Positions 1 to 60,500 of a DNA stretch of 64,000 nt are shown piece after piece (the stretch's first letter is position 1; every line of letters begins with the position of its first letter). Source of the stretch: a virus (lineage: Duplodnaviria > Caudoviricetes); the IMG/VR virus record IMGVR_UViG_3300043120_000039, positions 60,996 to 124,995 of that record; one strand, 5' to 3'. A program made the translations under genes and the position numbers. The notes beneath the pieces were generated by a model. It saw nothing but the letters and a program-made list of their open reading frames with translations, was not told the origin of the DNA and made no database searches.

Positions 1-32
1 GCTAAGATTAACACATCTGGATATATTGTCAA

Positions 33-425
33 CTAGTTTTCAATAATTTCAAATACTAAGTATTGTAGCATCTCAATGTCGCCATGAAGAATGTCATATT
101 GTTCCAAAGTTAAACCTTCTGAGTAACGTGTCATTGTGTCCTTCAAATCAGCAAGCTTTTCTGAAACTTCTTTTAATTTAGTAAGTTTCATGTTTTCTCT
201 GTCCGAATAAACTTCCACAACTTCATATACATCTTGGTCATCGAATTTCAAAGGTACATGCGTTGGTGCCATAATATACTTCTTAAATTGTAATTCGATA
301 GGTACATTAAAACGACTACGTTTCCAAGCTGATTTTGCATCACTAGCTTTGTTCCAACTACTTTTACCTGAATCAGCTACCCACTGTTGCAAAGTGTCTT
401 TGTTACGAATTATGAATGTGCTCAT
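33..425 (-). CDS. hypothetical phage protein
   Basis: 130-aa ORF with RBS-like GGAG, directly downstream of the polymerase-like gene. Confidence 0.75.
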   Translation of the reverse strand: MSTFIIRNKDTLQQWVADSGKSSWNKASDAKSAWKRSRFNVPIELQFKKYIMAPTHVPLKFDDQDVYEVVEVYSDRENMKLTKLKEVSEKLADLKDTMTRYSEGLTLEQYDILHGDIEMLQYLVFEIIEN

Positions 426-427
426 AT

Positions 428-1708
428 TTACTTCTCCTTTCTAATAGTACAATTGTTTGATGAACCAAGAACCATTTCAAATCCCTGCTTCATTACTTCT
501 CGCAACTTATCCTCTATAACATAAGGTGCTATAAACTCATCGAATACTTGTACAACTAAATAATCAGTATTCTGTAAGAAGTAGTTCATAACATAGTCAT
601 TAATCAACCCTCCTGCATATTGTAATTCGTAACCAAAATTACAATAGAAACAGTCACGTATTTGATAGTGAACTTCTTCTAACTTATCTAGTATTACTTT
701 CGTTGGAAATACAGGGCAGTAGAGTTTACCGGATTCGTAGAGTGCTTCTGCATCATAAGTTTTACGTAATGCTGATATAAGAGCTTTATCTGCTTGTTCA
801 TAAGATTCAGTGTTGAACATGATAAGCAGTGCTTTCTTGGCAACATCTCTCATAATACTTTTATCTATACCAAAAATTTCTATATCATAAGGGTCTTCCA
901 TAGGTTTGGTTAGGTGTAACATTTGGTAAGCAATAGACGGTTCAAAACCTTTGTAATCCAACCTAACCACATTGTATTCATCTATAATCAGCTTACTACG
1001 GTCTTCTTTAGACAACTGTTGAATACTTCCACCCTGCATATATGTTCTTCCACCTTTTGTTAAGGTTTCATTGTAAACTTTATAACTTTGTACATCAAAT
1101 TGAATATCATCTAAAGATATGGTATGGGATAGAGACCTTGTATTGTAATCTTGTAAATACCCACGAACCTCTTGTTTATGTGTGTTCATCTTAAAAGTCT
1201 TCTCCTTACCATCTTTATCTCTAAGAAATAATACATTCATCATAGGATCTTGTCCAAAAGTATTTTCATAGTTCATATAGAGTTCAATTAGTTTTGTTTC
1301 AGCAACAGCGTACGAAGGATGTGTATCAACAGGTCTCCATTTACCATCTACATAACCCCAACCCTCATAGCCACCTTTAACTACATCAATATAGCTTTCA
1401 TGATATAAGAAGTCAAATAATTTCATGGTGTATGTATAGCTAATCTTTCTCTTGGTGTCACGACCATTAACAATAACATGTTTACTATAGTGATTCTGGT
1501 TTAAGGTTAGAGGTATCTTACTCCTACCTTTTCTTATCGGATAGAATGAATTCAAGACCCAACACTTAACGACATTAGTTATCTTTTCTTCTCGACTACT
1601 GGTGATATTTAGCATCTCATGATCAACAAGGTATTCAGTGAACTCCTGTACTAATACTTCAACAAGTCTATTAAACCCTTTATTAATATTATAATCTAAT
1701 TGATACAT
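428..1708 (-). CDS. PolA/T7-RNAP superfamily (TV-Pol-like) polymerase, paralog 1
   Basis: GGRTY motif, motif A LDYKGFEP, motif B RDVAKKALLIMFN, motif C VFDEF; GAGGAG RBS; paralog of 56109..57386. Confidence 0.7.
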   Translation of the reverse strand: MYQLDYNINKGFNRLVEVLVQEFTEYLVDHEMLNITSSREEKITNVVKCWVLNSFYPIRKGRSKIPLTLNQNHYSKHVIVNGRDTKRKISYTYTMKLFDFLYHESYIDVVKGGYEGWGYVDGKWRPVDTHPSYAVAETKLIELYMNYENTFGQDPMMNVLFLRDKDGKEKTFKMNTHKQEVRGYLQDYNTRSLSHTISLDDIQFDVQSYKVYNETLTKGGRTYMQGGSIQQLSKEDRSKLIIDEYNVVRLDYKGFEPSIAYQMLHLTKPMEDPYDIEIFGIDKSIMRDVAKKALLIMFNTESYEQADKALISALRKTYDAEALYESGKLYCPVFPTKVILDKLEEVHYQIRDCFYCNFGYELQYAGGLINDYVMNYFLQNTDYLVVQVFDEFIAPYVIEDKLREVMKQGFEMVLGSSNNCTIRKEK

Positions 1709-1854
1709 TATACTCCTCTTTTAAGTGTATCATGGGGAACACCCTACTGTTAGTATTGAAAATTTATAAAATAATACATAAAATCTCCTATAACTCTATG
1801 AATCATAAGAGAAATTTTGTATGTTATAGGAGGAAACAGCGTGTACCACAGGTG

Positions 1855-2019
1855 TTATTTTGTTAATTCACGTTCCCCTCTAACCAGACATAAGCAATAG
1901 TATTCTTCTTCATCACCACGCTTTTTAGCCCTGTACATACGCTTAGTAATATTACTTTGTGATAACTCCAATGAACGTAAGAAATTTAAACGTTCGTGAT
2001 TAATTTCAATGTTATTCAT
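1855..2019 (-). CDS. small hypothetical protein (54 aa, MNNIEINHERL...)
   Basis: read manually; GAGG RBS; TTGACA(2075-2080)/TATAAT(2051-2056) promoter upstream. Confidence 0.6.
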   Translation of the reverse strand: MNNIEINHERLNFLRSLELSQSNITKRMYRAKKRGDEEEYYCLCLVRGERELTK

Positions 2020-2429
2020 AAACCCTCTCGAATACTTTGACCTATACCTAATTATACACTATTTACATCCTACATGTCAATTATCATGGACAGATAGTCA
2101 ATAATTAAAACCAAAATAACCTACTCACAAATCCACACAAATAAACTCCAATCAAGATTAATAACTTATAATCAAAAGGTTTACTCTCACTAGAAGGAAC
2201 ATCATCTTTGACATAGCGCACACCAATTGGTGGTGCAGGAGGTTTTGATTTTAATTGATTTTTCATTTAGAACCTCTGAACAGTCTTTCTGGCCTTTTAA
2301 CAATAGTGTCATTATCTTCTACAGTAACCCACCACCAATCACTAAAATCATTAACCCTCCGAATTAAGGTGTACTTCTCTTTTGTATGAATGTCATAGAC
2401 TACTTGGTCTTGTATATAGGAATTACTGC

Positions 2430-3319
2430 TCATAAGTTCATCTCCTCTAAAGTATAAACATAGTCAACAATATCCTGCACAGAAATATTACTGTCTTTCC
2501 AAGACTTACAACGGCTACCTTCACCTGAATCCGCAAGGTTTTGATTAGTTTGATTATGTTTATTCTCAAAATTCTTCAACATTTTAACAATCTGATACGT
2601 CTCAGGAAATTTATCCATCATCTTCTGAACATCAGGATGTGGTGGAGCTGGATAAGGTGTTTTCATAATTATACTCCCTTAGTTAATCTTAGTTTACCAA
2701 TAAAACCTTTAGCAATATTAAAGAAGCTGTGAGTTTTCTTATTCTTGCTATGTTCTTTCTCTAAGGTAAGCATACATGACTTAATAGCATAATCCCAACC
2801 TTTCTGGAATTGTTTATACCGTTCTTCGGCGCGCTGGATACCTTCTTTTGTCATAGGTAACATATGTGCCTCTGATCTACGCCATGCATGATAACATGCA
2901 CTCTCGCCTTCTTCTTTATCAAAATTATCCATTACTTTCCTCCATATCTTCAATCTCAAAACAATCAATAAATGCAAACTTTCCATCATCTGCAAGAAAC
3001 TCTTTCAAGTAAGTAATAATGTCACCATCATAATACTTCTGCAGAGATTCCTCATCAATAAAGAAGCCTTTGCTGTAAGATAATTTTAGGTTAATGTAAT
3101 CTTTGCTCACTTAATCATCCTCCAAATAATAGTATCTACAATTTCAACAATTTCTTCATCTTCCAGAATGTCTGGCATACTAGTATCATACTCTGAAAGG
3201 TACAACCCACTTTCTGTCCAAACTTCTTCATCCAAAAGGTATTCTCCATAGAAGTGTGCTGTTGTGTCATCTTCATAGAAATTACCTTGCCATAAATGTT
3301 CATATTTAGATTTACTCAT
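2430..3319 (-). CDS. cluster of four small hypothetical genes (2430-2666, 2669-~2932, 2925-3110, 3107-3319)
   Basis: abutting or overlapping ORFs with RBSs on one strand; the last two are acidic. Confidence 0.65.
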
Positions 3320-3475
3320 ACATACCTCCAGTGTAAGTATAATACTTCTCAGACAACGTGTAAAGCTTGTGGTAAGGTTTTAACCTCTAAGATGATAAAC
3401 TACCTTAGTTAATATTAATTCTTCACCACAGAGCTTACAGATACTATCTAAAGCTACATACTATGTCCTTACGGA

Positions 3476-3640
3476 TTAATCTTCAAGATTATACTGCACC
3501 CAACAAATTTCCTCTTGCTCAGAAGGACTCAGAATTGTGAAAGGTACTTTCTTAAAGTGATAAGGTTGGTCTTGTTCTTTGATGAACCAACCAATATGAT
3601 GCTCACGACCTTTATCATTTTTATTCCAGACTTCAAATAA
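3476..3640 (-). pseudogene. headless ORF (LFEVWNKND...LSPSEQEEICWVQYNLED), remnant of a gene related to 4937..5149
   Basis: no start codon, preceded by in-frame TAG at the TnpB element right end; C-terminus aligns with LSTEEEEQLCW of 4937..5149. Confidence 0.6.
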
Positions 3641-3780
3641 CTAAATGTGCAACAAGTGCAACATATTCACACCAAGGTGTGCATTTTATAGTGACGCTGT
3701 TATCTGTCGCCACTGAAAACATTATAGTTGTTTCAAACATTCTGTCAAGATATTTCTTGCAGCATTCAAATCTCTATCTA
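3641..3780 (-). ncRNA. putative TnpB omegaRNA/reRNA scaffold
   Basis: position at tnpB 3' end and right end; hairpins AGTGGCG..CGTCACT and CACACC-TT-GGTGTG; 5' boundary is a guess. Confidence 0.55.
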
Positions 3781-4819
3781 TACTAGAACCACAATCACAA
3801 CTGTATGTTCTATCTGACAGTTTTAAGTCTTCCTTGATGTTACCACAAACACTACACAGTTTGCTTGAAGGGAAGTATTGGTCAACAAACAATACTTTAC
3901 ATCCTCTTAAGAAGGATTTATACTCCAATTGTCTACATAACTCGTACATACCAACATCAGAGATCATACGTGATAAATTCTTGTTACCATTCTCAAGCAT
4001 ACCTTTGACATCTAAGTCTTCCATGCAAATTATTTCATATTCTGATGTCAAGTAGTCACTTACTGAATGTAACAATGATTTACGTTGTTGTGCAACATAG
4101 AAATGTAGTTTACTAATATTTTGCTTGGTTTTCGCTCTACGATTACTACCTTTCTTTTGCTTTGCAAGTCTTTGTTGCAATTTAGCTAGTTTACTTAATT
4201 GTTTAGAAAGTCTATTAGATTTTCCAATACATACACCTTCAGACGTGGTAACTAATGCCTTGATACCCAAATCTATACCAACATGTTTATTGCTTGTAGG
4301 TTGTTTAAGATTATACCCAGACTCTACTTCTACCAACACAGATGCAAACCATTTACCACCTGTTTTACTAATTGTCAATTGTTTAGGTTTACCTGTAAAT
4401 CGAAGTTTTTCTCGTAAAGATATAGGAGGTAGACTCTTAACTTTATTGAATTTCTCTATACGAAGTTCTCTGCCGACAACAGAGAATTTAGGTGATTGAG
4501 AGATTCTAAAGGAATCTTTGATGCCCTTCTTCTTAAACTTAGGAAACCCTTTCTTATTTTTAAAGAAACCTTTAAAAGCATTTTCAAGATTGTCAATAGT
4601 AGATTGGAAGATCTCTGTACTTAACTCGTTGTACCAAGTAAACTCATTACGACTACTGTAATAAAACTCTCTCGCAGATTTCTTCGAAAACTTATTCTCT
4701 TTATTCGAGAAATGTGCAACCATGTTATTCCATAAATGACGGGAACTACCACAAGCACTTTCAAAGAATTGTTCTTGCTCAAGTGTTGGACGTATCTCTA
4801 TCTTGTGTGCTAACAACAT
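3722..4819 (-). CDS. tnpB: RNA-guided endonuclease TnpB (IS607/IS605 OrfB)
   Basis: MLLAHKIEIRP N-terminus, RuvC motifs GIDLG, MEDL and DRDLNAARN intact, zinc ribbon CSVCG..CDCG. Confidence 0.95.
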   Translation of the reverse strand: MLLAHKIEIRPTLEQEQFFESACGSSRHLWNNMVAHFSNKENKFSKKSAREFYYSSRNEFTWYNELSTEIFQSTIDNLENAFKGFFKNKKGFPKFKKKGIKDSFRISQSPKFSVVGRELRIEKFNKVKSLPPISLREKLRFTGKPKQLTISKTGGKWFASVLVEVESGYNLKQPTSNKHVGIDLGIKALVTTSEGVCIGKSNRLSKQLSKLAKLQQRLAKQKKGSNRRAKTKQNISKLHFYVAQQRKSLLHSVSDYLTSEYEIICMEDLDVKGMLENGNKNLSRMISDVGMYELCRQLEYKSFLRGCKVLFVDQYFPSSKLCSVCGNIKEDLKLSDRTYSCDCGSSIDRDLNAARNILTECLKQL

Positions 4820-4907
4820 TATAAAATTCCCCATTTAAATATAATTGCAAATCCGCTTCCGTATAATACCTTCTATTGGTTGGTGTCCTACGAGCTTTAA
4901 ATATACT
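4790..4907 (-). pseudogene. remnant of IS607 TnpA N-terminal MerR-like HTH
   Basis: manual translation RRVSIFKARRTPTNRRYYTEADLQ, preceded by a stop; no serine-recombinase domain follows. Confidence 0.65.
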
Positions 4908-4936
4908 AACTCTTCTCTAAAGCGATTACAGAAGCT

Positions 4937-5683
4937 TTAATAGTATTCTCTCAATAGCCAGCAAAGTTGTTCCTCTTCTTCTGTAGAGAGTCGGATTGGT
5001 AAACGCACAAATCCAACCTGTTGCTTCTCACGTTCAAACTTTGCAAGACCTTCTGAGTTTACAACAATCTTACCTAATTTACGATGTGTAAAACTATCTA
5101 AGTCTATAATATTCAATTCTTTATCAACTTTTAATGTAGTCATAATCAATCTCCTTAGTGTATAGTTTTACATGCATCGTAAAGATAATAGTTTCCATTT
5201 GAAGCAATTCCAGCTTCAAGTTCCATTTTAAGATGTTCCAAGCACATGTCAAGATCAAAGTTGCTTAAATATTCTTCATTAAGATTAATGTTGACTTCAA
5301 TAGGGTAATCAAACAATTCAGAATAGAGTACCAGATCTAGACTTTCAAAAATACCAGAAGCATCTTCGTATTCACCAAGCTTGATTTCAACACTAAAACA
5401 TTGTATCTCATTCTTGATACGACCAAGTAGTAAGTAAATTTGTTGCATTTCTTTCATAGGTTAATCCTTATAATTTGGTTAGTTTAGAGTAATTCGGAAA
5501 ACTTCTCCAAGTACACCATTGCTCATCTGGGTAATCTTCATCAGCATACCAATCGAGTGTATCGTAACTTCCAAAACTATTGTCAACATTGCGATAGAAT
5601 ACCACATGGCTTTTAAACTTTCGGTAATGTGTTGCACCTTGTGGTGGATTGTTAATCATCTTAATAAAAGTTTCTTTCTTCAT
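4937..5683 (-). CDS. three small hypothetical genes (4937-5149, 5155-5457, 5468-5683)
   Basis: consecutive ORFs with RBSs downstream of the leftward promoter at ~5.72 kb. Confidence 0.7.
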
Positions 5684-5711
5684 AACTATCTCCTTTTCAA
5701 AATTTACCTTA

Positions 5712-5802
5712 ATCTTAGCAAACAGAATCTTGTTGTCAATAAGTATTTTGTAGAAAATTTATCATAGGTAAAGGTTGACTTTGGTGAGAGAGGTGGTATG
5801 AT
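5712..5802. promoter_or_regulatory. divergent sigma70 promoters at the strand switch
   Basis: minus TTGACA(5734-39)/TAAGAT(5712-17); plus TTGACT(5775-80)/TGnTATGAT(5797-5802). Confidence 0.7.
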
Positions 5803-5811
5803 TGAGGAAAT

Positions 5812-7562
5812 TTGTATATGGAGGGTTTTATGAAGAGGAATAACAAGAGGTTGAAAGCTGCTAAGAGAATTATTCATGAAGAATACATTGATAAGTATGC
5901 TGAAAGAGGTATGTCTAAAAGCAGAATCTACAAAGAAATAAGTTTTAGATTAGGTTATGAATTCCACTGCGCAGATATGACACATGATACAGATTTTGAC
6001 TATGTAGTTAGTGTTGTAAAAAGTGTAATAGAAGATTTACATGTAGAATATATGAGGAATTATTAAGGATAAGATCATGTTGGATGAAAAACAAGCTATT
6101 AAATTTTGGAATAATATTGCAAGAGGTGAGGTTATTGGTTACATTCCAGATTCACAACAGTATCAAGGTGATTATCTAACAAAACCTACATACTTAAGCA
6201 CTATCTGTGATCAATTTGAATTACCTACACTTATTGTGCCTTACACAAGTCACTTTGGTGCTGGATACGGGTGTGCACCAACAAGTCATAAACCTAATAA
6301 AGATGAATGTTACAGAGTTGCTAATTTCTTGAGAAACTTAGCTGACAGTATTGAAAGTGCTGGAGAGTAGTTTATGACCTCAGAAAGATATGATAAGCGT
6401 CACAAAGAATTGTGGAAACTTATGTGCACTTATGATGATGAAGATAACAATAATCATCAAGTAATATCCTACTTCTGCAAGAGAAATCGTGGTGATGCAG
6501 AAGATGTTGGTAAAATAGTCCTAGAGGCTCCTGTGATTGAATATAAGCACCTTTTCAAGACAAGTGAAGCAAGACTACTGCTTAAGAATAAATACTCTCA
6601 GAAACGCTTCTGGGAAGGAAATACACATACTTGCAATGTCATTGCTAATTTAGAACATTATCTAAGGCAGGCAGAAGATGAATGCTGTGGCAAAATATTA
6701 TTGACAAGCGAAGAAATTGCGTCTATTCTTGGAAAGAAATCTAAACGTTGAGGAGAAAACTTAATATGATTAAAACTTATATTACACTTGACAAGGCTAT
6801 TGCAAATGTAGAATACTTTACAACACCAAACAAGAAGGGTAAGACAAAATTAGATACTTGTGAAACAGGATTTACTTGTTATGCAAACAGTTTGCATGTT
6901 GTAAAAGACTATGCTTGTAATGGTAAACTGTCTGTTCCAACACAAGCAGAGAAAGCACAAAAAGTTTTGGATAAATTAGGGGGTAAGTAATGAAGAAGTA
7001 TGAAAATTGTATTGGTTACGTAGAAGGTGTAAATCCTTCACCTACAAACAAAGTAACTTTTAGTATTATTGAACTATTTGGAGAAACACCTGTACATCCA
7101 GATAAGTTTGAAAAGTTGGATCCACGATTAAAGTGGTTCGGCATTTGTAAAGAAAGTAAAAGTTTTTGTGTAGGTTGTGGTACACTTACGCCACATATTC
7201 CTTATGAACATCACACAGAATGTGGACATTATCTATCAAAAGAATATTGTCAAGAAATGGAAGTTTATAAAATTAAATGTATGGGCACTGAAAAGCAACG
7301 TTCCCAGCCACTTAAGGTTGAATTAAAGAGTGGTAAACTTTTGATTTCAATTGGTATTGACAACCTTGCATATGCCGTAAGTCATTCTGATAATTGGAAC
7401 GAAGAAGATAAGATTGTTGATACATATGAGTTTGCAAGAGATATTAAGACTACAATTTCAGATGATGGAGGTGAAGGAACAATTTACCATCTGTTTGATA
7501 TGGCAGCAATTGAAGCAGCAGAACATGGAAGTCTTGGTGTAGAATTTGGAGAGGATAAATAA
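5812..7562 (+). CDS. five hypothetical genes (5812-6066, 6077-6370, 6374-6751, ~6766-6990, 6990-7562)
   Basis: contiguous plus-strand ORFs; no recognisable motif. Confidence 0.65.
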
Positions 7563-7885
7563 TGCCGGCTATTAAATCTGATGGAGGAAGTTCTTCATAT
7601 TACGATATTGAGATTCCAGAGTGGCTATTGGAAAAACTTAATGCACGTAACATGGATGGTAAATGTTTTATCAAAACAGAAGAGATTAATGAAATTTTAG
7701 GTAATGATTTCAATTATTCTACCATTTTCAAGAGTATGGTTCGAGCTATCTCTATTGAGAATGGTATTGGTAAGGCAGGGAATACACATAGTTATGAGTG
7801 CAACAAGGTTCGATATTATATTGACCGTGTAGAAGATAAATTTAACCGAGGTAAATCTAATGCAGAAGAAAAAGATTGCAGTTGA
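7562..7885 (+). CDS. conserved phage protein, DUF3310/SaV-like
   Basis: DGGSSSYY N-terminal motif, F..FK..R..GK....Y...K..YY pattern. Confidence 0.5.
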   Translation: MPAIKSDGGSSSYYDIEIPEWLLEKLNARNMDGKCFIKTEEINEILGNDFNYSTIFKSMVRAISIENGIGKAGNTHSYECNKVRYYIDRVEDKFNRGKSNAEEKDCS

Positions 7886-8462
7886 CATCGACTTAGTTTG
7901 CACAGAAGATTTGGGGAATCGATGGTGGGATTATTTGGTGATGCTTTGGAAAGATCATCTGACAGATGATAATTATTACCAATTCGTCAAGGATTATGAA
8001 AATGGTTGTGCAGAATATAATCTGACAAAATACTTCAATCTACCAGATTATGCAGACCCTATGCTGTTCTGGAAACAAGATAACCTTTATGATGAAGAAC
8101 CTCTTGCAGAAGGTTGTTATGAAGTCGTCAAGAATTTATGGCAAGCAGGTTTTGAGATTTACTTTATTAGTGTAACAGAACCAGCACATATGCAAAGCAA
8201 GAAAGATTACCTTGCACGAAGTTTTGATTTTATGGATAATATCAATTTTGTTGCAACAGATGCTAAGGATTGTATGGATGGTTGTTTTGCAATAGTAGAT
8301 GACCGTCTAGATAATCTTAACGGATTTGAGAATAATGATACTCTTCGAATTTTATTTGACACACCATATAAACAGGATGTAGAATCAACACAAGATTACA
8401 AACTTGCTAAGAATTGGCAGGATGTAGAAGATTTTATTTGCCAGAGAATGGAGGCACTATGA
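7860..8462 (+). CDS. HAD-family 5'(3')-deoxyribonucleotidase
   Basis: IAVDIDLV motif I, IVDDRLDNL motif IV, ILFDTPY. Confidence 0.8.
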   Translation: MQKKKIAVDIDLVCTEDLGNRWWDYLVMLWKDHLTDDNYYQFVKDYENGCAEYNLTKYFNLPDYADPMLFWKQDNLYDEEPLAEGCYEVVKNLWQAGFEIYFISVTEPAHMQSKKDYLARSFDFMDNINFVATDAKDCMDGCFAIVDDRLDNLNGFENNDTLRILFDTPYKQDVESTQDYKLAKNWQDVEDFICQRMEAL

Positions 8463-8628
8463 AACGAGTAATGATTACAGATCCTGTGTATGAAGGTATG
8501 ACTGGAGAAGTGGTATCAGTTTGCACAGATGGACAACATCCTATGGCAAAAATTAAACTTGATGCAGATGGAAGCTTTTTGTTTCTATTTCTAGATGAAT
8601 TTGTTGATATTAAAGAGGAGAATATTTA

Positions 8629-9747
8629 ATGAAAGCACGTACTATTGAGAAAACAATTAAAGAGAAAGTTCTAGATTGGATGAATTCACTTCCTGTAGAA
8701 CTACAAGAATATGTTGGTAGCAAAGTTGTTGTAACAGGTGGGAGTATTGCATCTATGTTCCTAAAAGAACCTGTGAATGACTATGACATCTATTTTAAGA
8801 ATATTAAAGCAGCTATGATGGTAACACGTCATTACTGTCAAGAATGGATTACCAAAAACAATGAAGCTTCCAAAGCAGGCCATGTTAGTAAATCAATTGT
8901 ACCTAAATTACGTCTAACCTTTTCAGAAGATCTAGGTGCGGATAAGAAAGGTAATATTGCAGCAATTTTTACACACAAAGAGTCAAACACTCATTACCCT
9001 AATGGTAAGATGGTAATTCACCCAGAAGATGACGGCCTGAACACACTATTTGATTCTGCAAATTACTGGTCAGAAGTAGAACGTGTTGAAATCTTTATTC
9101 AGAGTGCTGGTATGGTGGGTGAAAACCCCGACGAAGAGTATGACTATTTTGAAAGTTGTGAACCGCAAGCTGCAGAAGATTACATTGATAAAACTATTAT
9201 GTCAGAAGATGCGTTGGAATCTAAATGTGATAAGTACCGCATTGTGTTTATGTCAAGTAATGCTATTACTCTGAGTGACCGTGTTCAACTCGTAATTCGA
9301 TTCTTTGGTGAACCAAGTAAAATTCATGATACATATGACTTTATCCATGCGACAAACTATTGGACAATGAAAGAAGGTCTTGTTACAAACACTAAAGCTC
9401 TTGAAGCTATTCTAGCTAAAGAATTAGTTTACAGTGGAAGTAAATACCCTCTTGCAAGCATCTTCCGTACACGTAAATTCTTGAAACGTGAATGGACTTG
9501 TCATGTAGGTAACTATGTCAAAATGGCAATGCAGTTGAATGATATGGATTTGTGTGACCCAGAAGTTCTTGAAGAACAGTTGACAGGTGTAGATGCTGCA
9601 TACCTACATCAGATTATCCGAGCAGTTAAAGATAAGAAGAAAGATGATCCAACCTTCGAATTTAATTCAACTTACATTTGCACACTAGTAGACCGTATGA
9701 TGGGTGTAACTGGTCAACAACCAGAAGATATTGAGGGTGTTCTATGA
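8629..9747 (+). CDS. Pol-beta-superfamily nucleotidyltransferase
   Basis: VTGGSIAS...VNDYDIYF signature, YDFIH motif. Confidence 0.75.
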   Translation: MKARTIEKTIKEKVLDWMNSLPVELQEYVGSKVVVTGGSIASMFLKEPVNDYDIYFKNIKAAMMVTRHYCQEWITKNNEASKAGHVSKSIVPKLRLTFSEDLGADKKGNIAAIFTHKESNTHYPNGKMVIHPEDDGLNTLFDSANYWSEVERVEIFIQSAGMVGENPDEEYDYFESCEPQAAEDYIDKTIMSEDALESKCDKYRIVFMSSNAITLSDRVQLVIRFFGEPSKIHDTYDFIHATNYWTMKEGLVTNTKALEAILAKELVYSGSKYPLASIFRTRKFLKREWTCHVGNYVKMAMQLNDMDLCDPEVLEEQLTGVDAAYLHQIIRAVKDKKKDDPTFEFNSTYICTLVDRMMGVTGQQPEDIEGVL

Positions 9748-9984
9748 TAACAAAAGAGTTAATCAACAAACTATTTGATGTTTGTGAAAAGTTAGATTTA
9801 GATTTCACAATATTTAATATAGGTCTGCACGAAGATAGTTTAGAAATTTATACTGCCGAGGAACATGATGAGTACCTTTATCATGGGTCTATGGGTGTTG
9901 AAGCTAAGTGTGAATCTGACATAACAGATTTTCTAAGATCAGTACGTGCCCAGAATAAATATTACAAGAATAAGGAGAACAACA

Positions 9985-10671
9985 TTGACTAAAAAAGAAC
10001 TAACATTGGCAGACATTCTAGCCTTTCAAACAAAAGTTATTGATTGGAATCAGATTTTTGGTATTAATCCTGATTCAAAAGAGTATACAGGACTTTATCA
10101 ACAATTGACTTTTGAAGAATGTTTCAAGGAAAACGAGTTAGTAGAATCTATTGAGAAAGGTGATATGGTTGGAGTAGCAGATGCTTTGGCAGACAATCTA
10201 TTCACCTGTCTGCAGTGGGCTGTGCTTGATGGTAAGCCTCTAACGCTTGATGACAAGCAATGGTTTGACAGAGTTGTCAAAGGTAATGACATGAAAACTA
10301 TTGCTCTTGAACAATACAAGGATGCTGTTGTCAATGGTGATTCATATAAAGCACAAACATCACTTTTGCACCTATTAGAAAGCTATTCAGATGTAATTGA
10401 TATTATTGGTGCATTCAATCGTGTGCACGAAAGTAACCTTTCTAAAGCTGTACATGAATCAAAAGATATTGACATTTCTGCAGAGATTGCTAATATTGAA
10501 TCACAAGGTCGATATGGAGATGTAACTTGTGTGAAAAGTGGAGAATATTGGGTATTCAAAGCTGGACAAGATGTGAGAGATGCTGTAGTATTTGATAAAC
10601 CAAAAGTGGTGAAAAGTAGTCACTTCCAAGATGTGAATAATCTTGGTGGATTAGGTCAATTCGTATATTAA
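9985..10671 (+). CDS. MazG/PRA-PH-like NTP pyrophosphohydrolase
   Basis: EE..E..VADALADNLF and F.RVHESNLSK motifs; TTG start after AGGAG. Confidence 0.75.
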   Translation: MTKKELTLADILAFQTKVIDWNQIFGINPDSKEYTGLYQQLTFEECFKENELVESIEKGDMVGVADALADNLFTCLQWAVLDGKPLTLDDKQWFDRVVKGNDMKTIALEQYKDAVVNGDSYKAQTSLLHLLESYSDVIDIIGAFNRVHESNLSKAVHESKDIDISAEIANIESQGRYGDVTCVKSGEYWVFKAGQDVRDAVVFDKPKVVKSSHFQDVNNLGGLGQFVY

Positions 10672-10755
10672 ATCTTGAGGATAATATATAAAATTACCTA
10701 TGATATACAACATAATTTAGAAACACAATATTTTATAAACTAAAGGAGAACAAAT

Positions 10756-11073
10756 ATGACAGAACAAAATAACACACAAGTATCAATCATTCCAAAATCA
10801 GATGAAGCTCGTGAAAAGTTTTATGCACGTTGCAATGAATGGATTGGATTGCAATATCAGATTGAATCAGCACAGGAGGCTCAGAAAGAGTTGATGAATC
10901 TTATTGCAGATGATTTTGTAGAAGCTAATCCTGATGTTAAAAAGGGTGATGTTAAGAAACGTACAGGTTTGATGATTAAAGAGTTTCTCGAAGGTAAGGC
11001 TACAGCAGAAGCACAACTTTGTGACGATGTTCTTGGTGACTATTCAATTGCACAGAAATTCTTGAAAGGGTAA
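10756..11073 (+). CDS. small helical protein, possibly DsbA/GapR-like DNA-binding
   Basis: size and coiled-coil pattern; strong RBS; function weakly inferred. Confidence 0.4.
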   Translation: MTEQNNTQVSIIPKSDEAREKFYARCNEWIGLQYQIESAQEAQKELMNLIADDFVEANPDVKKGDVKKRTGLMIKEFLEGKATAEAQLCDDVLGDYSIAQKFLKG

Positions 11074-11078
11074 TATTT

Positions 11079-11303
11079 ATGACACTAAATGAACTAATGG
11101 ATGAACTACAAGATTTGAAAGATTCAGGTGTAAGTGGTGGAACTGAAGTACGAGTTTATGCAGATCATGGACAAATGAGTATGACTTGTGGTGGAGCTGG
11201 AATCTCTTATATTGAAGAGGAAGGTTACAGTGTGGAGAGTATTCACCCTGATGACTTAGAGGACTATCCTGATGCAATTAAAGTTGTAGAGGTTTGGGGA
11301 TAA
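11079..11303 (+). CDS. hypothetical acidic protein
   Basis: 74-aa ORF MTLNELMDELQDL. Confidence 0.65.
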   Translation: MTLNELMDELQDLKDSGVSGGTEVRVYADHGQMSMTCGGAGISYIEEEGYSVESIHPDDLEDYPDAIKVVEVWG

Positions 11304-11607
11304 TTTTATAGGATTATATTCCTAATAATGTGATATTGTTGGGAATATAATCCATGTTTTGGTGGAGATTAAGTTCTCCCATTTTGGTAATAACTTATTC
11401 CAAAAGGTTATTTCACAAAACAATGATTTCCTGAGAAAATAGAATATTACCTTTGATAAAGGAGAATAACTTTGACAGAAGAAGTAATAATTCTCAGGAT
11501 AGATGAAATTATGGAGAAGATTGTCTCTGACCAAACAGGGACTTTCCTGCACATAGAGAAAACTATTCTGAGGGAGTGGATTGAGGATGTATTGATGGAG
11601 ATTGTGG

Positions 11608-12366
11608 ATGGATGATGTAGAAGTATTATACGATGGAGATTTAATAACACGTAAGGAAGCCTTTAATAGTAATGGGGTATATTATTTTACAGGGAAGCCT
11701 TGCAAGTACAACCATATAGATAGAAGAGAGGTATGCTCTGGGCAATGTGTTAGATGTAAGCGGTTGAGAACTAGTCGGTATAGGAATGAAGGTTCCGTCG
11801 ATAAGCCCATAAAACCAACACCCTCTGTAGAGAGGCTTATCTACCTCTTTAATTTTGATTTGGATAAAGGTATTATTTATTACAAAGAACGTCCAAAAAC
11901 CTACTTTAAAGATCTACGAGCATATAAAGCTTACAATACAAGATTTCTTGGAAAGCAAGCCGGAAGTTTGCAGAAGTCTGTAGGTTATAGGGAAATACGT
12001 ATTGACGGAGAGTTGTTCAGGGAACACAGAGTTTTGTGGAAAGTTGCTTATGGGAAAGATGCTGATAGTCTTATAGATCATATAAACGGAATAAAAGAAG
12101 ATAATCGCCTCACAAATCTCAGAGAAGGCACTAACCAAGAGAATAGTGCCAACAAAACCCCCAGTAGGAATCATACAAGTTACAAAGGTGTTACGTATCG
12201 TAAAGGTAAGTGGGATGTAACTATATCCAAAGATAACGGAGAAACGATTGCTCGTAAGTCTTTTAATTCTGAAATAGAAGCTGCAAAATATTATAACAAA
12301 AAGGCTAGAGAATTCTTTGGTGATTTTGCAAAACTTAACATTATAGAGGAAAATGATGACAAATAA
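11608..12366 (+). CDS. HNH-AP2 homing endonuclease
   Basis: HRVLW...IDHINGIKEDNRLTNLR HNH, C-terminal YKGV...AAKYYN...FGDFA AP2 domain, N-terminal YFTGKPCK..H. Confidence 0.9.
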   Translation: MDDVEVLYDGDLITRKEAFNSNGVYYFTGKPCKYNHIDRREVCSGQCVRCKRLRTSRYRNEGSVDKPIKPTPSVERLIYLFNFDLDKGIIYYKERPKTYFKDLRAYKAYNTRFLGKQAGSLQKSVGYREIRIDGELFREHRVLWKVAYGKDADSLIDHINGIKEDNRLTNLREGTNQENSANKTPSRNHTSYKGVTYRKGKWDVTISKDNGETIARKSFNSEIEAAKYYNKKAREFFGDFAKLNIIEENDDK

Positions 12367-13885
12367 ATTTTCAATGAGTTTCAAACCTTCGGGACAGGTT
12401 GTTGATAGTGGTGAATTAGACCAGAAGAAAGAGTTTATTCGTGATGAAAGTGATAATAAGTTATTTTCAAATATTCAGGTTGATGATATAAAGTCCGTCA
12501 CCGATGAGAACACAGAATGGTATCTTGATGGAGACGGGATCGTCTGGAAGTCATGTTCTTCTGTAGAAAGCCTATACCTTGAAGTGACAAACCTTGTAAC
12601 AAAAGAGACCTTTGAGATTGAAAATATAACAAAATTTAAAGGTTCAACAAAAGAGATTTCCGAAAACTCATGGTTAGGTACTGAGAATGTTAAAAGATTA
12701 GCTAAAGGTTTAGAACCATATACTGTGGACGATTTTGAAATCAAGCAGAAATCAAGATTGAATTATAGTTCCGAGGATAAAGCTTTTGAACAAGTTCAGA
12801 TCATGATTAGAACTAAACTTAAAAACCTAAGACAACAGTTCCTGATTGATAATATTAGATTCTGTATTGGGGAAGGTAAATGTTTCAGGAATGATGTACC
12901 TACTGTAGAACCTTATAAGGGTCAACGCTCCGAACTCAGACCAATCTTACTAAAGAGGACAAGAGATTGGGTTATTAAAGATTTAAATGGCTTATTAGCA
13001 CCACAAGGTTACGAAAATGATGACTTCGTAGAGTGGCATGGGGCTGAGGGGTTTAAGAATTTTAAGAAGACTAATATCTTCACAAAAGGGGTCATAGCTG
13101 AAGATAAGGACGCACTATCAAACGCAAAGTTGTTGATATCGTTCGGGGTACATACTGGAGAAGACAACCCTAATAAAGGTAAATTTAAATTCCCAAAACC
13201 TTGGTTGATTGGTGACACGTCAATGTCTGTTGGGGAAATAGATCTAGTAGTGAAAGGGGTTAAAAATCCTAAAAAGGAATGTAAAGCCACAGGACTTAAG
13301 TGGTTGATTTTACAGGCATTTTTCTTAGGTGATACCTCAGATCATTATAAACCATTACAACATTTACGAGAATATAAGACCAATTATGGTGATGTTCAGG
13401 CATATAATGATTTTGTAAGTCTAAAAACACCACAGGAAGTCTTACAAAAAGCGGTAGACCTATATGCAGAAATGTTCCCATATGGTATTACATACACTGA
13501 CCACAAAGGGGTGCTTCATGACGTACCAACTATTGAATATATGAACACGTATTTTAAAGTTGCTTATATGACTAGATCTCCTTCTGATCCGACAGATTTT
13601 TATGTGTTATGTAAAGCTTTCAATGTTGATACAAGTAAAATCACCAACAACAATCTTTACTATCCACCACAAAAAGTATATGTTGGCAATGAAGAACATT
13701 CTCAAGAAGTTATGTCTCTTGTAGAAAGCATTCTCAAAGATGACCTCAAAGGTTTCAAAACTTTGAAAAAGGCTGATGCTGCAGAACGGATTGATATTAT
13801 CAAAGCGAAGCTTGAATCAATTAATTTTGATAGTCATTATGAAATGCAGCAAAAACGCAAGGAACATTTGGAGGTAAGTGAATGA
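12353..13885 (+). CDS. 5'-3' exonuclease (FEN/T7 gp6-like)
   Basis: LDGDG, FR...YKGQR, YENDD, EDKD and GDTSDHY acidic motifs. Confidence 0.8.
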   Translation: MMTNKFSMSFKPSGQVVDSGELDQKKEFIRDESDNKLFSNIQVDDIKSVTDENTEWYLDGDGIVWKSCSSVESLYLEVTNLVTKETFEIENITKFKGSTKEISENSWLGTENVKRLAKGLEPYTVDDFEIKQKSRLNYSSEDKAFEQVQIMIRTKLKNLRQQFLIDNIRFCIGEGKCFRNDVPTVEPYKGQRSELRPILLKRTRDWVIKDLNGLLAPQGYENDDFVEWHGAEGFKNFKKTNIFTKGVIAEDKDALSNAKLLISFGVHTGEDNPNKGKFKFPKPWLIGDTSMSVGEIDLVVKGVKNPKKECKATGLKWLILQAFFLGDTSDHYKPLQHLREYKTNYGDVQAYNDFVSLKTPQEVLQKAVDLYAEMFPYGITYTDHKGVLHDVPTIEYMNTYFKVAYMTRSPSDPTDFYVLCKAFNVDTSKITNNNLYYPPQKVYVGNEEHSQEVMSLVESILKDDLKGFKTLKKADAAERIDIIKAKLESINFDSHYEMQQKRKEHLEVSE

Positions 13886-14911: not shown

Positions 14912-14918
14912 ATTTTTA

Positions 14919-17034: not shown

Positions 17035-17040
17035 AGTTTT

Positions 17041-17663: not shown

Positions 17664-17664
17664 T

Positions 17665-19138: not shown

Positions 19139-19146
19139 GGTGATTC

Positions 19147-55699: not shown

Positions 55700-56105
55700 G
55701 AATCCCCCATTTCATCCAAATCATAATAACCACACCACTTTCCATCAATGTAGATGCAATATTCAAGTTCTGTATCATTCCAAACAATCTGAACTTTGTC
55801 AATAGGAATATTCCACTTTGTAGAAATTTTCTTTGTTACATAAGGTATGAAATGCTCGGTATAGTCTTCTTCATAAACAGTTTTCATCGATTCTCATAAC
55901 CTCCACATTCATCATCTAATTCGTCTTCAAGGTAAGCATAGTACAATTCTTCACCTTCTTCAATCTCTTTCTGAACTAATCTTTTCTCAAGAGATTTACT
56001 TGGAGTACAGACATCTTTCCACCAACAATCATATTCTCCATTGTCACGGATGTAATGCTTACCACCAGTTTTATCTTTGTAATATTTACACCCAAGTGGT
56101 TTCAT
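55696..56105 (-). CDS. two hypothetical genes (55696-55887, 55884-56105)
   Basis: ATGA-coupled ORFs. Confidence 0.6.
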
Positions 56106-56108
56106 TGG

Positions 56109-57386
56109 TTATGCTTCTCTAACTATGCGGCAATTGATTGAGAAACCACAAACATGTTCATAAGCTTTCTTCATACAATCCAGCAACTCTTTTCTGAATT
56201 TAGCTGGTGCTATAAATTCATCATGTGTTTGGATAACAAGACACCCATAATTCTGCATCATAGATTCAACAACATAGTCATTAATTAAACTGCCAGCGTA
56301 TTGAAGTTCTGCACCAAAGCCACGATAAAATTTATCTGATATTAGGTGATGTTTATCTTCTAGCATCTCCATCAACATCTTAACGGGGATCCGTGAATCT
56401 GGTATCTTTCCGTCTGTGCATAACTTATCTACATCAAACTCCGCCCGTACTGCTGAATTCAAAGCTTTATGAGCAAGTTCCTTAGATTCTGTATTGAACA
56501 TGATAAGCAAAGCTAATTTAGAGAACTTACGAAGAACCTCAGAGTCATATCCATCTAAATCCAATTCATAAGGATCTGTGAATTCCATATTTTCTTGAGA
56601 CATACTATAAGCAAGACTCGGCTCGAATCCTTTGAAATCATATGCACATATATTTTCGTTGTCTATTGTAATACTATGCCTCTGTTGTTTGCTTAAACCT
56701 TGTACTGAATTTTTCATATGAGTTCTACCTCCTCTTTGAAAGTTCTCATTGAAAACTTTATAACTCTGTACATCATACACTTTGTCACCACTCTTGACAA
56801 CCTTTTCCTTAGAAAATTCATTAAATTTTTGAAGGTAATCTTTAACCTCTTTTATATGGACATTCATTTTAAATGTCAAAGATTCTTTATTTCTGTTGCG
56901 TAATATTATTACATTTGTTAAAGTTTTTACATTATCACCATTAAGTGGATGATTACAATATAAAGTCTTGAGTTTGTCTTTAAAAACAATGAAACTCCTG
57001 ACGAAAGAAATTATTTGCCATTTTCCCATGTGGAAACCGTATTCAGGAGTACTACCAATATCAAGAGTGATGTAACCTTTTATAACTAAGAAATCTAACA
57101 GGCTTCTTGTGTAGGTATAACTTACCTTACGTCCTGTACTCTTACCATTAACTATAAAAGGTTTAGTATAAACACTTTCATCTAAAGTTACACCAACCTT
57201 ATCATGATTATTCATACAGTTATTATATGTGTTTAGTATGAAACAACCAACTGCTTTCTTTGCTAACTTACGTTTATTGTCGGTTACTTTATTATACATC
57301 GATTCTAAATAAGTTAAAAATTCTGAAGTTATTTCATCTCTAAGTTGATATAGTTGTTTATTAATCTTATAATCTAATATATACAT
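56109..57386 (-). CDS. PolA/T7-RNAP superfamily (TV-Pol-like) polymerase, paralog 2
   Basis: GGRTH, YDFKGFEP, RKFSKLALLIMFN, THDEF; colinear with 428..1708. Confidence 0.7.
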   Translation of the reverse strand: MYILDYKINKQLYQLRDEITSEFLTYLESMYNKVTDNKRKLAKKAVGCFILNTYNNCMNNHDKVGVTLDESVYTKPFIVNGKSTGRKVSYTYTRSLLDFLVIKGYITLDIGSTPEYGFHMGKWQIISFVRSFIVFKDKLKTLYCNHPLNGDNVKTLTNVIILRNRNKESLTFKMNVHIKEVKDYLQKFNEFSKEKVVKSGDKVYDVQSYKVFNENFQRGGRTHMKNSVQGLSKQQRHSITIDNENICAYDFKGFEPSLAYSMSQENMEFTDPYELDLDGYDSEVLRKFSKLALLIMFNTESKELAHKALNSAVRAEFDVDKLCTDGKIPDSRIPVKMLMEMLEDKHHLISDKFYRGFGAELQYAGSLINDYVVESMMQNYGCLVIQTHDEFIAPAKFRKELLDCMKKAYEHVCGFSINCRIVREA

Positions 57387-57569: not shown

Positions 57570-60500
57570 TTAATCTCCCTCTTTCAAATAGTCTACGTAA
57601 TTAACAACAAAGTTATCTAGGTAATTATCTACTTGATCCAAAATGATGTCAATAGTTTCAAGTGGAATATTTTGTGTTGTAATAACCATACCTTCTTTAA
57701 CAGACTTCATTACTTTTGTTAACATCTCTTGATTATCAAGAATAAATTGTTCTACTTCTGACATAACACCTCCTGTTCATCAACTCTCTAATCCACGGCA
57801 ATCATCACCGTAAATTGTACTCTTTCCAAACTACCTTAATCCCAAAATGTATCAAGATGTTTAGCAATCAATCCAAAGCAATATTCTTTGTCGTACTTAC
57901 GACGAGCATCTTGATATTTATAATCTAAGTAAACAATCTCATCTTTGTAAATAGGAGAATCCTTTTGTTTAGGAATAATTCTATTACGATTGTTGAAAAC
58001 TTCACAAGGCTTATCATATTCACTATCACGAATGCGCTTCAGAAGCTCTGTAATCAACTTTAGCTTCTTACCAGTGTCATTACTGCGTACAAGATTTCCA
58101 TGCTTGCTGTGCATCTTAGAGGCGTTCTCTGTCCACAGAATCATTGCATCTAATAGATATTCTTGGTCATACCAAGGAAATTGTTTATGAAACTGCTTGC
58201 TGAATTTCTTTTTCATGGTTAAACACCTTTAACAAAGTCAAACTCTTGAGTTCCAAATTCAAACATACCTACTGTTTTCAAATCATACAGGGCTTCTTGG
58301 CAGATAAAGTATGCAACACGTTCTTCAAACTTAGGGTTCCATTCATAATTAAGACTACTAACAAAGAAATCCTCTGCAATCATTGACAGAAGAGAAGGAA
58401 GGTTAAAATTTACACCATTCTCTTTTGCTTTAGCAATCTTAGGTAGTAGATAGTTTGTTGCATTAAGTAAAGTTTCATGTGTATGTTTCATAAATATTCT
58501 CCTTGAATATTATTGGTTATAGTACAAGAGTAACACAGACGAGGTTTTTGTCAACATACATTTCCAAAATCAACCCCTCCTTTCACCCAAAGTTCACTTC
58601 GACTAACTGTAATCTGATTTACATGATATTGCAAGTTAAATACATCAAGCCACTCTGTCAATTCAACCATATCCCTGTATGAATCAATAGTATAAATTGT
58701 ATAGTCGTCTTGTTGTCTTATTGATGTGAACATTACTTAATCCTTGCAAAATGCACATAACGTTTTGACATAGTTGTCAAGACCACTTCATGACCACGAA
58801 ATTTGATTTTACCAGATTCAACATCACACTTAAAGTCATGATAGTTATTAATATTATGCAAATCATAATATGTATCATGATCCATGTAAAGTATGAACTC
58901 AACCTCACTAGGGTCAGTTTCACCCATTTGACAAGCCATATTATAAGCTTTATCCATTTCAGAGTAAATGTAGTGGATTAAAGTGTTGAGGTGTTGCTCT
59001 TCAAAACTGTCACTACTTCTGAAAACTGGACGTTCTGTAGTTTGAAACTTCACTGGACGATTAATACGTTGACAAAATTCACTGTTTGCAAAAGCAAGTT
59101 GCTTTTCAAGGTAATCTACCTTCCGTTGTAAACGTGCAACCTTTTTAGTTTTACTCATAATCACCCCAACCAAATTCGTTCTGTTCAATCCTGTAATTCC
59201 ATTCATTAACCAAAACCTGATTAATCTTAGCAGGGTAACCTTTCAATGTAAAGTAACATAGACTCTCTAAATGACCATCCTCTAAATCTTTTAGTGCAAT
59301 GTATTCTGTTTGAGGAAGTTTCTTACCATTCTTGTCAAAATTTCGTCCCCAGATAAACTCTTCTCGAATCTTTTCATGAGGATCATCTGTGTATAGTGAT
59401 AAGTCCTCAAACTCAAGATCAGAATACCCTATTCGTTGATATTGTGTTCCTCCATCAATAAAGTATTCTCGTCCATCTTCTTGAATATGTTGTTTGAAAT
59501 CATGTTGGTGTGTAGATTGTAATACTGTTCCATCGGGACAACGGATTTTATTCACCAAAAGTTCTCTTTGTTTATATTCCTTAGGTATTTCGTAGTCATC
59601 CATAAAACCTCCTATAACCTTCTGTAATCAATTTAAATTAATCATAAGGTAATCTATCACATTTGTCAATAAAACCTTGTGATAAGCCTTACAATTTGTT
59701 TAAACGTTATAATATCAGCCTTTCTCAAATAGTTTTATATTTCACAGATTATTCTTCTACAATTTCAAAATCTGCATAAATAAATTTGTAATTAGGTTTA
59801 ACACTATCACCTTTTACACCAATACGCAACAATTCTTCACCAAGAATATACGCACCTTGCAGACCTTTGTGTTCAAACAATTCTGCTTCGACAATAGCGT
59901 TGTCATAATTAACATTTTTCCAAGCACCATAAGGTTCTGTTTCTGCGGAGGATTTGGGTAATAGTTTAATTTTAGTCATAACTGTAAGTTACCCCCATAG
60001 ACTTTGTTATAAAGTTTGTGATATTCTTTCCAACCACTTTCCGCATAGCGATTACGGTTCTCTAGAACCTCTCTGAGACGTTTTAACTCTTTGAGCATAA
60101 GTTGGTTACCTTGCAGACGAACACGCTCTCTGGCTTGTTGTAGGGCTGATTTTAGACGTAAGTTGTCAATAACTTCTGAACCACTATAACCATTCTCTGT
60201 AAAGCCGTCAAACACTTGATCCATGACATGCTTAATAATGGTGTCTTCACATGACAAACGTTCTGCTAGTTCAAGTTTAAAATCATAAGAGGTATTATCA
60301 AAGATATCTAGTACATCTAGAATTACTTCCCCGTTTGCGTTAATTGTTGGTTTAATCATAGTTATTCTCCTTGCTGGTATTCGTTCATCAGAAACTTCAA
60401 AATCTCTTTACTACCATCGTCCAATTGGTTAATCTTAACCACAAGGTCTACCATTCTTTCTGCTGCATAAAAGTTGATATTATTGAACGCCGTTTTGATT

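Follow-up and report, generated by a model that had tools for sequence, protein, structure and literature searches.

Two divPolA2 polymerases with DNA-polymerase-type active-site residues in an ICP1-like phage, and exchange of active-site types at fixed loci

The window analyzed here, a stretch of 64,000 nucleotides with a GC content of 35%, covers positions 60996-124995, the second half, of the 124,995-bp virus record IMGVR_UViG_3300043120_000039, which is 99% complete according to CheckV. It holds two genes for minimal family A-type polymerases, hereafter copy 1 and copy 2, whose sequences place both in divPolA2, a family named in “DNA polymerase swapping in Caudoviricetes bacteriophages” (Virol J 2024, PMC11348598). 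The family has two active-site types, which replace each other at fixed loci, and both window copies carry the type with DNA-polymerase residues. We tentatively read the two as catalytically intact accessory enzymes that would synthesize DNA, most likely in starting or restarting DNA synthesis; this reading is plausible, and slightly short of probable. The two genes are given below, where E-type refers to the glutamate found five residues after the motif A aspartate.

428..1708, minus strand: divPolA2 copy 1, open reading frame (ORF) of 426 residues, E-type; motif A LDYKGFE, motif B RDVAKKALLIMFN, pre-C QYAG, motif C FDE
56109..57386, minus strand: divPolA2 copy 2, ORF of 425 residues, E-type; motif A YDFKGFE, motif B RKFSKLALLIMFN, pre-C QYAG, motif C HDE

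A sequence-only reading of this DNA had described a paralogous, colinear pair of 426 and 425 residues. The two minus-strand ORFs agree with this, as does BLASTP, which aligns them colinearly over their full length with 181/427 identities (42%, E 2e-111). The shared motifs listed at the time (MY.LDY.INK, GGRT, D(Y/F)KGFEP, ALLIMFNTES, QYAG.LINDYV, and FDEF versus HDEF) are all legible in the alignment of the two copies, and a further one, GRK.SYTYT, is exact in copy 2 while copy 1 reads KRKISYTYT. The end of copy 1 had been set at 1790, which is too high, given the frame is open for 430 codons and the ORF ends at 1708. That there are two such polymerases is correct within the window, and a profile search revealed a third copy elsewhere in the genome. 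The absence of an exonuclease domain was also rightly noted: structural matches to DNA polymerases span their polymerase domains only, and the N-terminal ~160 residues form, on structural grounds, a separate small domain.

Neither protein is assigned a family by general domain searches. Pfam returned no family for copy 1 at E<=10 and two unrelated sub-threshold rows for copy 2, and NCBIfam gave no family for either. Both match PHROG 4756 (phrog_4756, “unknown function”), with E-values of 1.7e-107 for copy 1 and 2.2e-102 for copy 2. The assignment to divPolA2 was made because both proteins match the published representative AUR84708 (MG592441.1, Vibrio phage 1.063.O) over ~100% of the query in tblastn, copy 1 with 28.9% identity and an E-value of 1e-45, and copy 2 with 34.3% identity and an E-value of 3e-63, with both matches falling at the coding sequence (CDS) AUR84708.1. 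In PMC11348598, divPolA2 is reported in 110 barbaviruses and in other phages, and is described as keeping an intact palm, lacking an exonuclease, carrying an N-terminal domain of unrecognized type, and lying in variable neighborhoods; the family is proposed to be either a repair DNA polymerase or an RNA polymerase.

The window proteins resemble this description in their size of ~430 residues, in keeping motifs A, B and C, in lacking the exonuclease, and in having a globular N-terminal domain in place of the canonical thumb. They have the family A palm and fingers, and the motif residues D251, K291 and D390 are present in 143/143 rows of the alignment described below. The likeness extends to the genome, which has paralogs in the number described for the family (two to three per genome), variable gene neighborhoods, and a regular DNA polymerase besides divPolA2, namely an 836-residue DNA_pol_A protein. 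Nothing sets the two proteins apart from the family. What the window adds is another case of a family already described, and not a system of a new kind. The family is large, as 1520 representatives (clusters at 50% identity) match it at E<=1e-3; when ten of these were looked up, a single one had a name, “hypothetical protein”. A full-text literature search for “divPolA2” returned the 2024 paper and its preprint only, with no experimental follow-up under that name. In the available text of PMC11348598 we did not find the division into E/G/E and H/D/S residues, the exchange at one locus, or the N-terminally extended third copy, all of which are described below. The 2023 reclassification of PolA (PMC10201439) names, in its available part, neither ICP1 nor Vibrio phages, and the phage PolAs treated there keep the exonuclease.

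The fold was predicted with AlphaFold2 from an alignment of 105 of the 150 best representatives plus the two window proteins, which yielded a model with a predicted local distance difference test score (pLDDT) of 96.8 and a predicted template modeling score (pTM) of 0.91. Foldseek against the PDB gave 104 matches at E<=0.001, the best with E 1e-5, and the rows listed are all family A DNA polymerases. The VIA structure search, which is independent of Foldseek, gave the following values, with the number of aligned residues and the root-mean-square deviation (rmsd) where noted.

Apicoplast Pol: 14.4 (235 residues aligned, rmsd 3.9 A)
Aquifex Pol I: 13.5
Yeast mitochondrial RNA polymerase (RNAP): 13.5 (347 residues aligned, rmsd 6.4 A)
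Pol nu: 13.4
Klenow: 13.3
T7 RNAP: 12.7 (361 residues aligned, rmsd 7.7 A)
N4 mini-vRNAP: 8.3
N4 RNAPII: 7.6

Together with the invariant motif residues, these matches uphold the earlier placement of the proteins in the superfamily of Pol I and T7 RNAP. Sequence comparison reaches less far. When the family profile was run against PDB sequences, the top match, Aquifex Pol I, had an E-value of only 0.036, pairing GR..., motif A D-x-x-x-x-E, RxxxK and HDE, and a single-sequence search of PDB sequences gave no match. The 11 top matches in BFVD all belong to the family, after which the E-value jumps from 5e-19 to 3e-7, and the family is therefore a discrete structural cluster. The small N-terminal domain replaces the usual thumb and is possibly winged-helix-like.

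Active-site residues were compared in an alignment of 143 rows, made of the genome's own three copies, the three copies of Vibrio phage vB_CoeS_P1, and 137 of the 150 best representatives (those of at least 350 residues); relatives of copy 1 are over-represented in this sample. R237, D251, Y274, K291 and D390 are invariant in 143/143 rows, R221 is found in 142 and R287 in 140. Three further sites vary together. Position 256, five after the motif A Asp, is E in 32/143 rows, H in 101 and another residue in 10. Position 366, three after the conserved Gln of the pre-C helix, reads G in 31/32 E rows, and all 111 other rows have D or E there. Position 391, which follows the motif C Asp, is mostly E in the E-type rows and mostly S in the others, with E in 27/143 rows and S in 105/143 overall. 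Given this covariation, the family has two active-site types. Both window copies, AUR84708 and the allele of a 2017 ICP1 isolate are E-type, and the third copy of the genome is H-type.

The two types were read against known enzymes. T7 RNAP (NC_001604) has D537...G542, H784-S-Q-D787 and H811-D812-S813, and the phage's own PolA reads Q-S-S-G ... H-D-E. The E rows thus have the DNA-polymerase arrangement at all three sites (Glu / Gly / Asp-Glu), while the majority H-type (His / Asp / Asp-Ser) has the arrangement of T7 RNAP at two of three, with His where T7 has Gly. The spacing from the pre-C residue to the motif C Asp is 27 in the family and 28 in T7 RNAP. Sites 256 and 366 are what we take to be Klenow E710 and Q849+3. 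The proposal that the Glu five residues after the motif A Asp is the Pol I steric gate holds in the alignment of hidden Markov models (HMM), in which D-F-S-Q-I-E of Aquifex Pol I pairs with the family's motif A, the T7 RNAP residue being Gly542. This coupled three-residue switch offers a concrete hypothesis for a change of sugar choice within one lineage.

The third copy lies outside the window (C1:33003-34643, plus strand) and was found by a profile search of the whole genome with an E-value of 1.6e-76. It encodes 546 residues with a Lys-rich N-terminal extension of ~120 residues and the active site H / D / HDS, stands ~800 bp upstream of nrdD, after a small Xre-like ORF, and groups with the long allele of ICP1_2006_C. 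The same search was run on 11 genomes (the window's genome and ten more), all of which hold at least one copy, with a range of 1-3, as follows.

Three copies: the window's genome; vB_CoeS_P1
Two copies each: S4-7; 5P1c; P018-4; three IMG/VR genomes
One copy each: 1.063.O; two ICP1 isolates

Scans with single proteins of genome and viral contig collections returned no relatives, and a search with a narrower alignment gave four loci.

In a FastTree phylogeny of 144 rows, the E rows form one clade with support 100. The clade was recovered by IQ-TREE in quick mode with a Shimodaira-Hasegawa-like approximate likelihood ratio test (SH-aLRT) value of 99, using 72 rows (30 E-type and 30 H-type chosen representatives plus 12 named sequences). 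The E-type is a derived subclade of divPolA2, to which both window copies belong. Within it, copy 1 stands with S4-7, 5P1c and P0001, and copy 2 with P0002, P0003, P0005 and P018-4. Since the two group with different relatives, the duplication is older than this phage, and the view of the pair as retained, diverged duplicates agrees with the trees, where the copies are old and not sisters.

The two types are exchanged at fixed loci. In two ICP1 isolates, flanks 98.6% and 98.5% identical enclose either a 434-residue E-type gene or a 553-residue H-type gene, the proteins of which are 28% identical over 240 residues. The two alleles are located as follows.

ICP1 E-type allele: L007:5995-7299 (MZ292654)
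ICP1 H-type allele: L027:3459-5120 (ICP1_2006_C)

At an identity of at least 95%, the E-type allele is found in 39 phage records and the H-type allele in 43, and the small genes that accompany the two alleles differ. Two ICP1 isolates (MW794154.1 and MW794164.1) have the E-type gene matched in two pieces and annotated as two CDS; a frameshift, an insertion and an error in sequencing are all possible causes.

A similar exchange is seen against vB_CoeS_P1, all three copies of which are H-type. This phage has an H-type gene at the copy 1 locus, between flanks that match at 84.6% and 68.9% identity, and another at the copy 2 locus, between flanks that match at 88.6% and 89.7%. In addition, when window positions 1-6000 were compared with four other sequencing runs from four studies, the block 426/435-2028, which holds copy 1 and a 54-residue ORF upstream of it, was found at ~96-97% identity in 4/4. 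It lies on a single contig in 3/4 runs, and those contigs diverge from the window at the block ends, although in metagenome assemblies contigs may also end this way where strains are mixed, with no mobility involved.

The phage is an ICP1-like myophage of vibrios. Its proteins find their best matches in phages of Vibrio, Rheinheimera, Aeromonas and Pseudoalteromonas, 115-145 kb in size, and the nearest DNA record is vB_CoeS_P1, which is 88% identical over window 2559-22041. The replication set consists of a 621-residue Toprim protein followed by the 836-residue DNA_pol_A protein (Pfam E 1.6e-16, C1:5420-7930). The genome also encodes NrdD, a Mu-type portal and a T4-type terminase, and the window a class I ribonucleotide reductase, PhoH, DNA and RNA ligases and several homing endonucleases. 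The large subunit of the ribonucleotide reductase lies in two ORFs (window 23272-24090 and 25157-26518, plus strand), split by a homing-endonuclease ORF of 225 residues with NUMOD4 and HNH_3 domains (24271-24948), an arrangement that looks like an intron or a split gene. The ATP-dependent DNA ligase (window 32853-35003, plus strand) holds an intein with a LAGLIDADG endonuclease domain; the Pfam families found are Intein_splicing, LAGLIDADG_2, DNA_ligase_A_M and DNA_ligase_OB_2.

Features beside the two window copies are listed below in window coordinates.

33..425, minus strand: 130-residue ORF, beginning 2 nt after the copy 1 stop; no known family, not a conserved partner
1784..1812, minus strand: hairpin with T run between the 54-residue ORF and copy 1; terminator- or attenuator-like, weak
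1855..2019, minus strand: 54-residue ORF directly upstream of copy 1; no Pfam family, moves with copy 1 as one block in related phages
2051..2080, minus strand: sigma-70-type promoter TTGACA-18-TATAAT ahead of the 54-residue ORF and copy 1; 12/12, a consensus match only
55884..56105, minus strand: 73-residue ORF, beginning 3 nt after the copy 2 stop; no known family, not homologous to the 130-residue ORF
57624..57652, minus strand: sigma-70-like promoter TTGACA-17-GATAAT upstream of copy 2, within a 64-residue ORF (57570-57764); 11/12, a consensus match only

The hairpin is regarded as weak because one such site is seen and 0.9 are expected in shuffled sequence. A spacer of 106-290 bp lies upstream of each copy, and the third copy, too, has an 11/12 consensus match upstream. 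These sigma-70 consensus matches at all three copies suggest early transcription by the host enzyme. The 24 sequencing runs listed included none of RNA that carried the genes. A search for phage-specific promoters found that the commonest exact 12-mers genome-wide occur five times, with which degenerate promoters remain compatible, and the 9-mers enriched upstream are AT-rich or sigma-70-like. Iterons or shared elements were likewise sought upstream of the three copies, where short two-copy repeats were all that appeared.

No neighbor is conserved across the 15 divPolA2 genes whose surroundings were examined, the neighbors being small ORFs of no family. The 130- and 73-residue ORFs downstream of the window copies have no Pfam family, and the downstream ORFs of the 15 genes, where present, gave 0 homologous pairs at E<=1e-3. 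A gene of the Xre-type helix-turn-helix (HTH) class lies upstream of divPolA2 in some cases, above the Pfam cut-off in 2/10 upstream ORFs scanned. It stands directly before the gene in the 2017 ICP1 isolate (L007:5595-5888) and at one vB_CoeS_P1 copy (L009:3186-3473), and these two are 59% identical. A weaker case (L004:12664-12867) lies upstream of the genome's third copy. Such a gene may be a cassette-borne regulator.

Two genes of mobile character stand near the window copies. An HNH_3 + AP2 homing-endonuclease-like gene (window 54928-55437, minus strand) lies ~700 bp downstream of copy 2 and may help exchange of the adjoining copy 2 cassette. A TnpB-like gene (OrfB_IS605, Cas12f1-like TNB, HTH_OrfB_IS605; window 3722-4834, minus strand) lies 2 kb from copy 1. 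No TnpA was seen near the latter, which has a 79%-identical copy in Vibrio phage IBT_VpB-34 and whose region has little or no cover in 3/4 of the other runs.

Nucleotide skew was considered as a marker of an origin and discarded. The global minimum of the cumulative GC and AT skew, at genome position 66,717 (window ~5700-5900), lies ~4 kb from copy 1 and coincides with a divergent switch from minus- to plus-strand genes. The skew tracks gene direction throughout, may thus stem from transcription and not from an origin, and is therefore uninformative on the origin.

As to function, the chemistry is almost certainly template-directed nucleotide polymerization, to judge from the catalytic residues, which are kept in every row. 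Since the three-site triad of the window copies is of the DNA-polymerase type, these E-type enzymes would copy a DNA template into DNA with deoxynucleoside triphosphates (dNTPs). They are regarded as accessory because the phage has a regular replicase, and would act beside the 836-residue PolA and the Toprim-containing, primase-helicase-like protein, probably with early expression driven by host-type promoters. A part in bulk replication or in transcription is less likely. Of the roles suggested earlier (primer synthesis, terminal-repeat duplication and dedicated transcription), the last is the least likely for the pair, because their active-site residues are of the DNA-polymerase type. With less confidence, their job may be priming at the origin or at restart and primer extension at particular sites, in the manner of CCPol-MP or of RNAP-primed origins. 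This initiator role is favored because priming tolerates a swap of E-type and H-type, the primer being DNA or RNA. T7 RNAP and mitochondrial RNAP prime origins, and the role is further favored because relatives of this fold do so. It is also favored by a positional coincidence: the ICP1 divPolA2 locus, whose place varies among isolates within 52-61 kb and is 58.8-60.8 kb in 2004_A and 2005_A, lies near the theta-replication peak of ICP1, placed “near the 60 kb position” (PMC7145576).

Several observations weigh against reading the window copies as accessory DNA-synthesizing initiators. The link to the ICP1 origin is positional only, with a resolution of a few kb, and neither iterons nor a shared motif were found upstream of the three copies. 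A small partner like MP is not conserved beside the 15 genes examined. The equivalence of sites 256, 366 and 391 to Klenow and T7 residues rests on HMM alignment, spacing and motif reading. Eight residues beyond the motif B Lys, where Pol I and T7 RNAP have Tyr, 130/143 rows and both window copies have Asn, so that the pocket for the nucleotide is not simply that of Pol I. The longest whole-protein structural alignments are to RNA polymerases, 347-361 residues (rmsd 6.4-7.7 A) against ~235-250 for DNA polymerases, and a near ESM Atlas cluster is automatically named “DNA-directed RNA polymerase family protein”. The literature found under “divPolA2” contains no biochemical data for any member. 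Lastly, if the types differ in sugar choice, their exchange at one locus counters roles that need one product.

In one bolder version, which we consider rather improbable, divPolA2 enzymes are site-specific primase-polymerases, the missing replication initiators of ICP1-like phages; their N-terminal domain would read an origin near their own gene, the ancestral H-type laying down an RNA primer like a T7-like RNAP and the derived E-type, with both window copies, a DNA primer like CCPol-MP. If true, this would explain both the replacement of E and H at one locus and the presence of 1-3 copies, one per origin. Repair or damage tolerance is another option, named in PMC11348598, in which these would be polymerases for gap filling, translesion synthesis or end-joining, like the exonuclease-less Pol theta and Pol nu, and would aid replication of damaged or host-modified DNA. 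The DNA-polymerase-type active-site residues fit such a role, as does the distribution of the genes, which are accessory, variable and present in 1-3 copies in 11 genomes. However, the neighborhoods examined show no link to recombination or repair genes, and repair leaves unexplained both an RNAP-like H-type standing in for the E-type and the N-terminal, possibly DNA-binding, domain. We regard it as unlikely.

PMC11348598 also raises the option of an RNA polymerase, and single-subunit enzymes of this kind could serve to express one class of phage genes or to produce a transcript at an origin; promoters would be recognized by the N-terminal domain, and the paralogs would serve different promoter classes. 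T7 RNAP has H-D-S and the pre-C Asp in common with most of the family, the third copy among them, and the automatic cluster name in the ESM Atlas points the same way. A hidden RNAP would be of interest in ICP1, which is said to encode none and in which late genes are activated without replication (PMC9040626, PMC13595925). Yet the window copies have Glu and not Gly at the steric gate, and D-E and not D-S in motif C; neither matches Pfam RNA_pol (PF00940); no phage-specific promoter is repeated, as exact 12-mers reach a maximum of five occurrences, although degenerate promoters would still be compatible; and very different alleles at one locus in close genomes would require promoters to change with them. 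A literature search on ICP1 and single-subunit RNAP gave nothing relevant among the matches listed. Transcription by these enzymes is held to be quite unlikely. Finally, the genes could belong to cassettes that are exchanged under diversifying selection, whether as arms-race genes or as selfish modules that homing endonucleases help to spread, and their activity would serve counter-defense or the cassette itself and not core replication. This is favored by alleles 28% identical between near-identical ICP1 flanks in 39 and 43 records, by the other type between matching flanks at both window loci in vB_CoeS_P1, by the block around copy 1 recovered in all four runs, in three of them on single contigs that diverge at their ends, and by the HNH-AP2 and TnpB genes close by. 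Nevertheless, the catalytic residues are strictly kept in 143 rows, and the chemistry is therefore under purifying selection; none of the 11 genomes examined is without a copy; and the contig ends may stem from strain mixtures. Moreover, this explanation speaks of gene movement and not of activity, and is compatible with the others. We deem it very doubtful.

The accessory DNA-synthesizing reading, with initiation as the likeliest task, concerns a large family that is present in ICP1, the best-studied cholera phage. The statement that ICP1 has no RNA polymerase would need revisiting only if an H-type enzyme makes RNA, and the natural exchange at one ICP1 locus provides ready-made isogenic material for probing sugar choice.

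Among known systems, the one named earlier was TV-Pol, which the motif set of the window proteins had been said, as an established point, to fit. The family is already in print under a name of its own, divPolA2 (PMC11348598). The features that define TV-Pol are a hairpin Arg, two Asp, a fingers Asp and RxxxK (Iyer et al. 2008, PMC2579912), and the window proteins have the set (R221, D251, D390, D272, R287/K291), which does not discriminate because it is common to all family A-type polymerases. They also resemble TV-Pol, including CCPol of SCCmec, in being minimal family A-type polymerases without a nuclease domain. The Microcystis phage Ma-LMM01 is listed as a TV-Pol carrier (PMC2579912), and the family profile weakly matches one 506-residue ORF of that genome (E 0.002 for the genome), which is a probable TV-Pol. 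Against a 7-sequence alignment of this ORF, hhalign gave a weak match of 46% probability (E 2e-4, 86 columns), and TV-Pol membership thus does not stand as established. In this ORF motif C reads H-D-G, the fifth residue beyond the motif A Asp is His, and the eighth beyond the motif B Lys is Asn, all of which it has in common with divPolA2, and a distant link of the family to TV-Pol is plausible on these sequence grounds. As to the fusions and neighbors typical of TV-Pol (a D5-like helicase, or a resolvase, integrase or transposase in a mobile element), the picture is mixed: there is no fusion, and no D5-type helicase, resolvase or integrase is associated with the window loci, but a TnpB (OrfB_IS605) gene lies 2 kb from copy 1, at that one locus. 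CCPol, a minimal A-family polymerase, works with dNTPs and primes de novo together with the partner protein MP (Bebel et al. 2020, PMC7581432), whereas the window genes are without a conserved MP-like partner.

With T7-like RNAPs the proteins have the fold in common over most of their length, and the majority H-type adds H-D-S and the pre-C Asp. In contrast, Gly542, Asp787, Ser813 and Tyr639 of T7 RNAP correspond to Glu, Gly, Glu and Asn in the window copies, which have F-D-E or H-D-E in place of H-D-S, are half the size, and have an unrelated N-terminal domain (also noted in PMC11348598). With Pol I they share the best Foldseek and VIA matches (Klenow, Bst, Taq and apicoplast Pol type) as well as the motif A Glu and the D-E of motif C. 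They differ from it in lacking the exonuclease, in having Asn for the O-helix Tyr and an N-terminal domain instead of the canonical thumb, and, in copy 1, in having Phe for the motif C His; neither window protein matches Pfam DNA_pol_A (PF00476) over the cut-off. The divPolA2 family stands between the family A DNA polymerases and the T7-type RNA polymerases.

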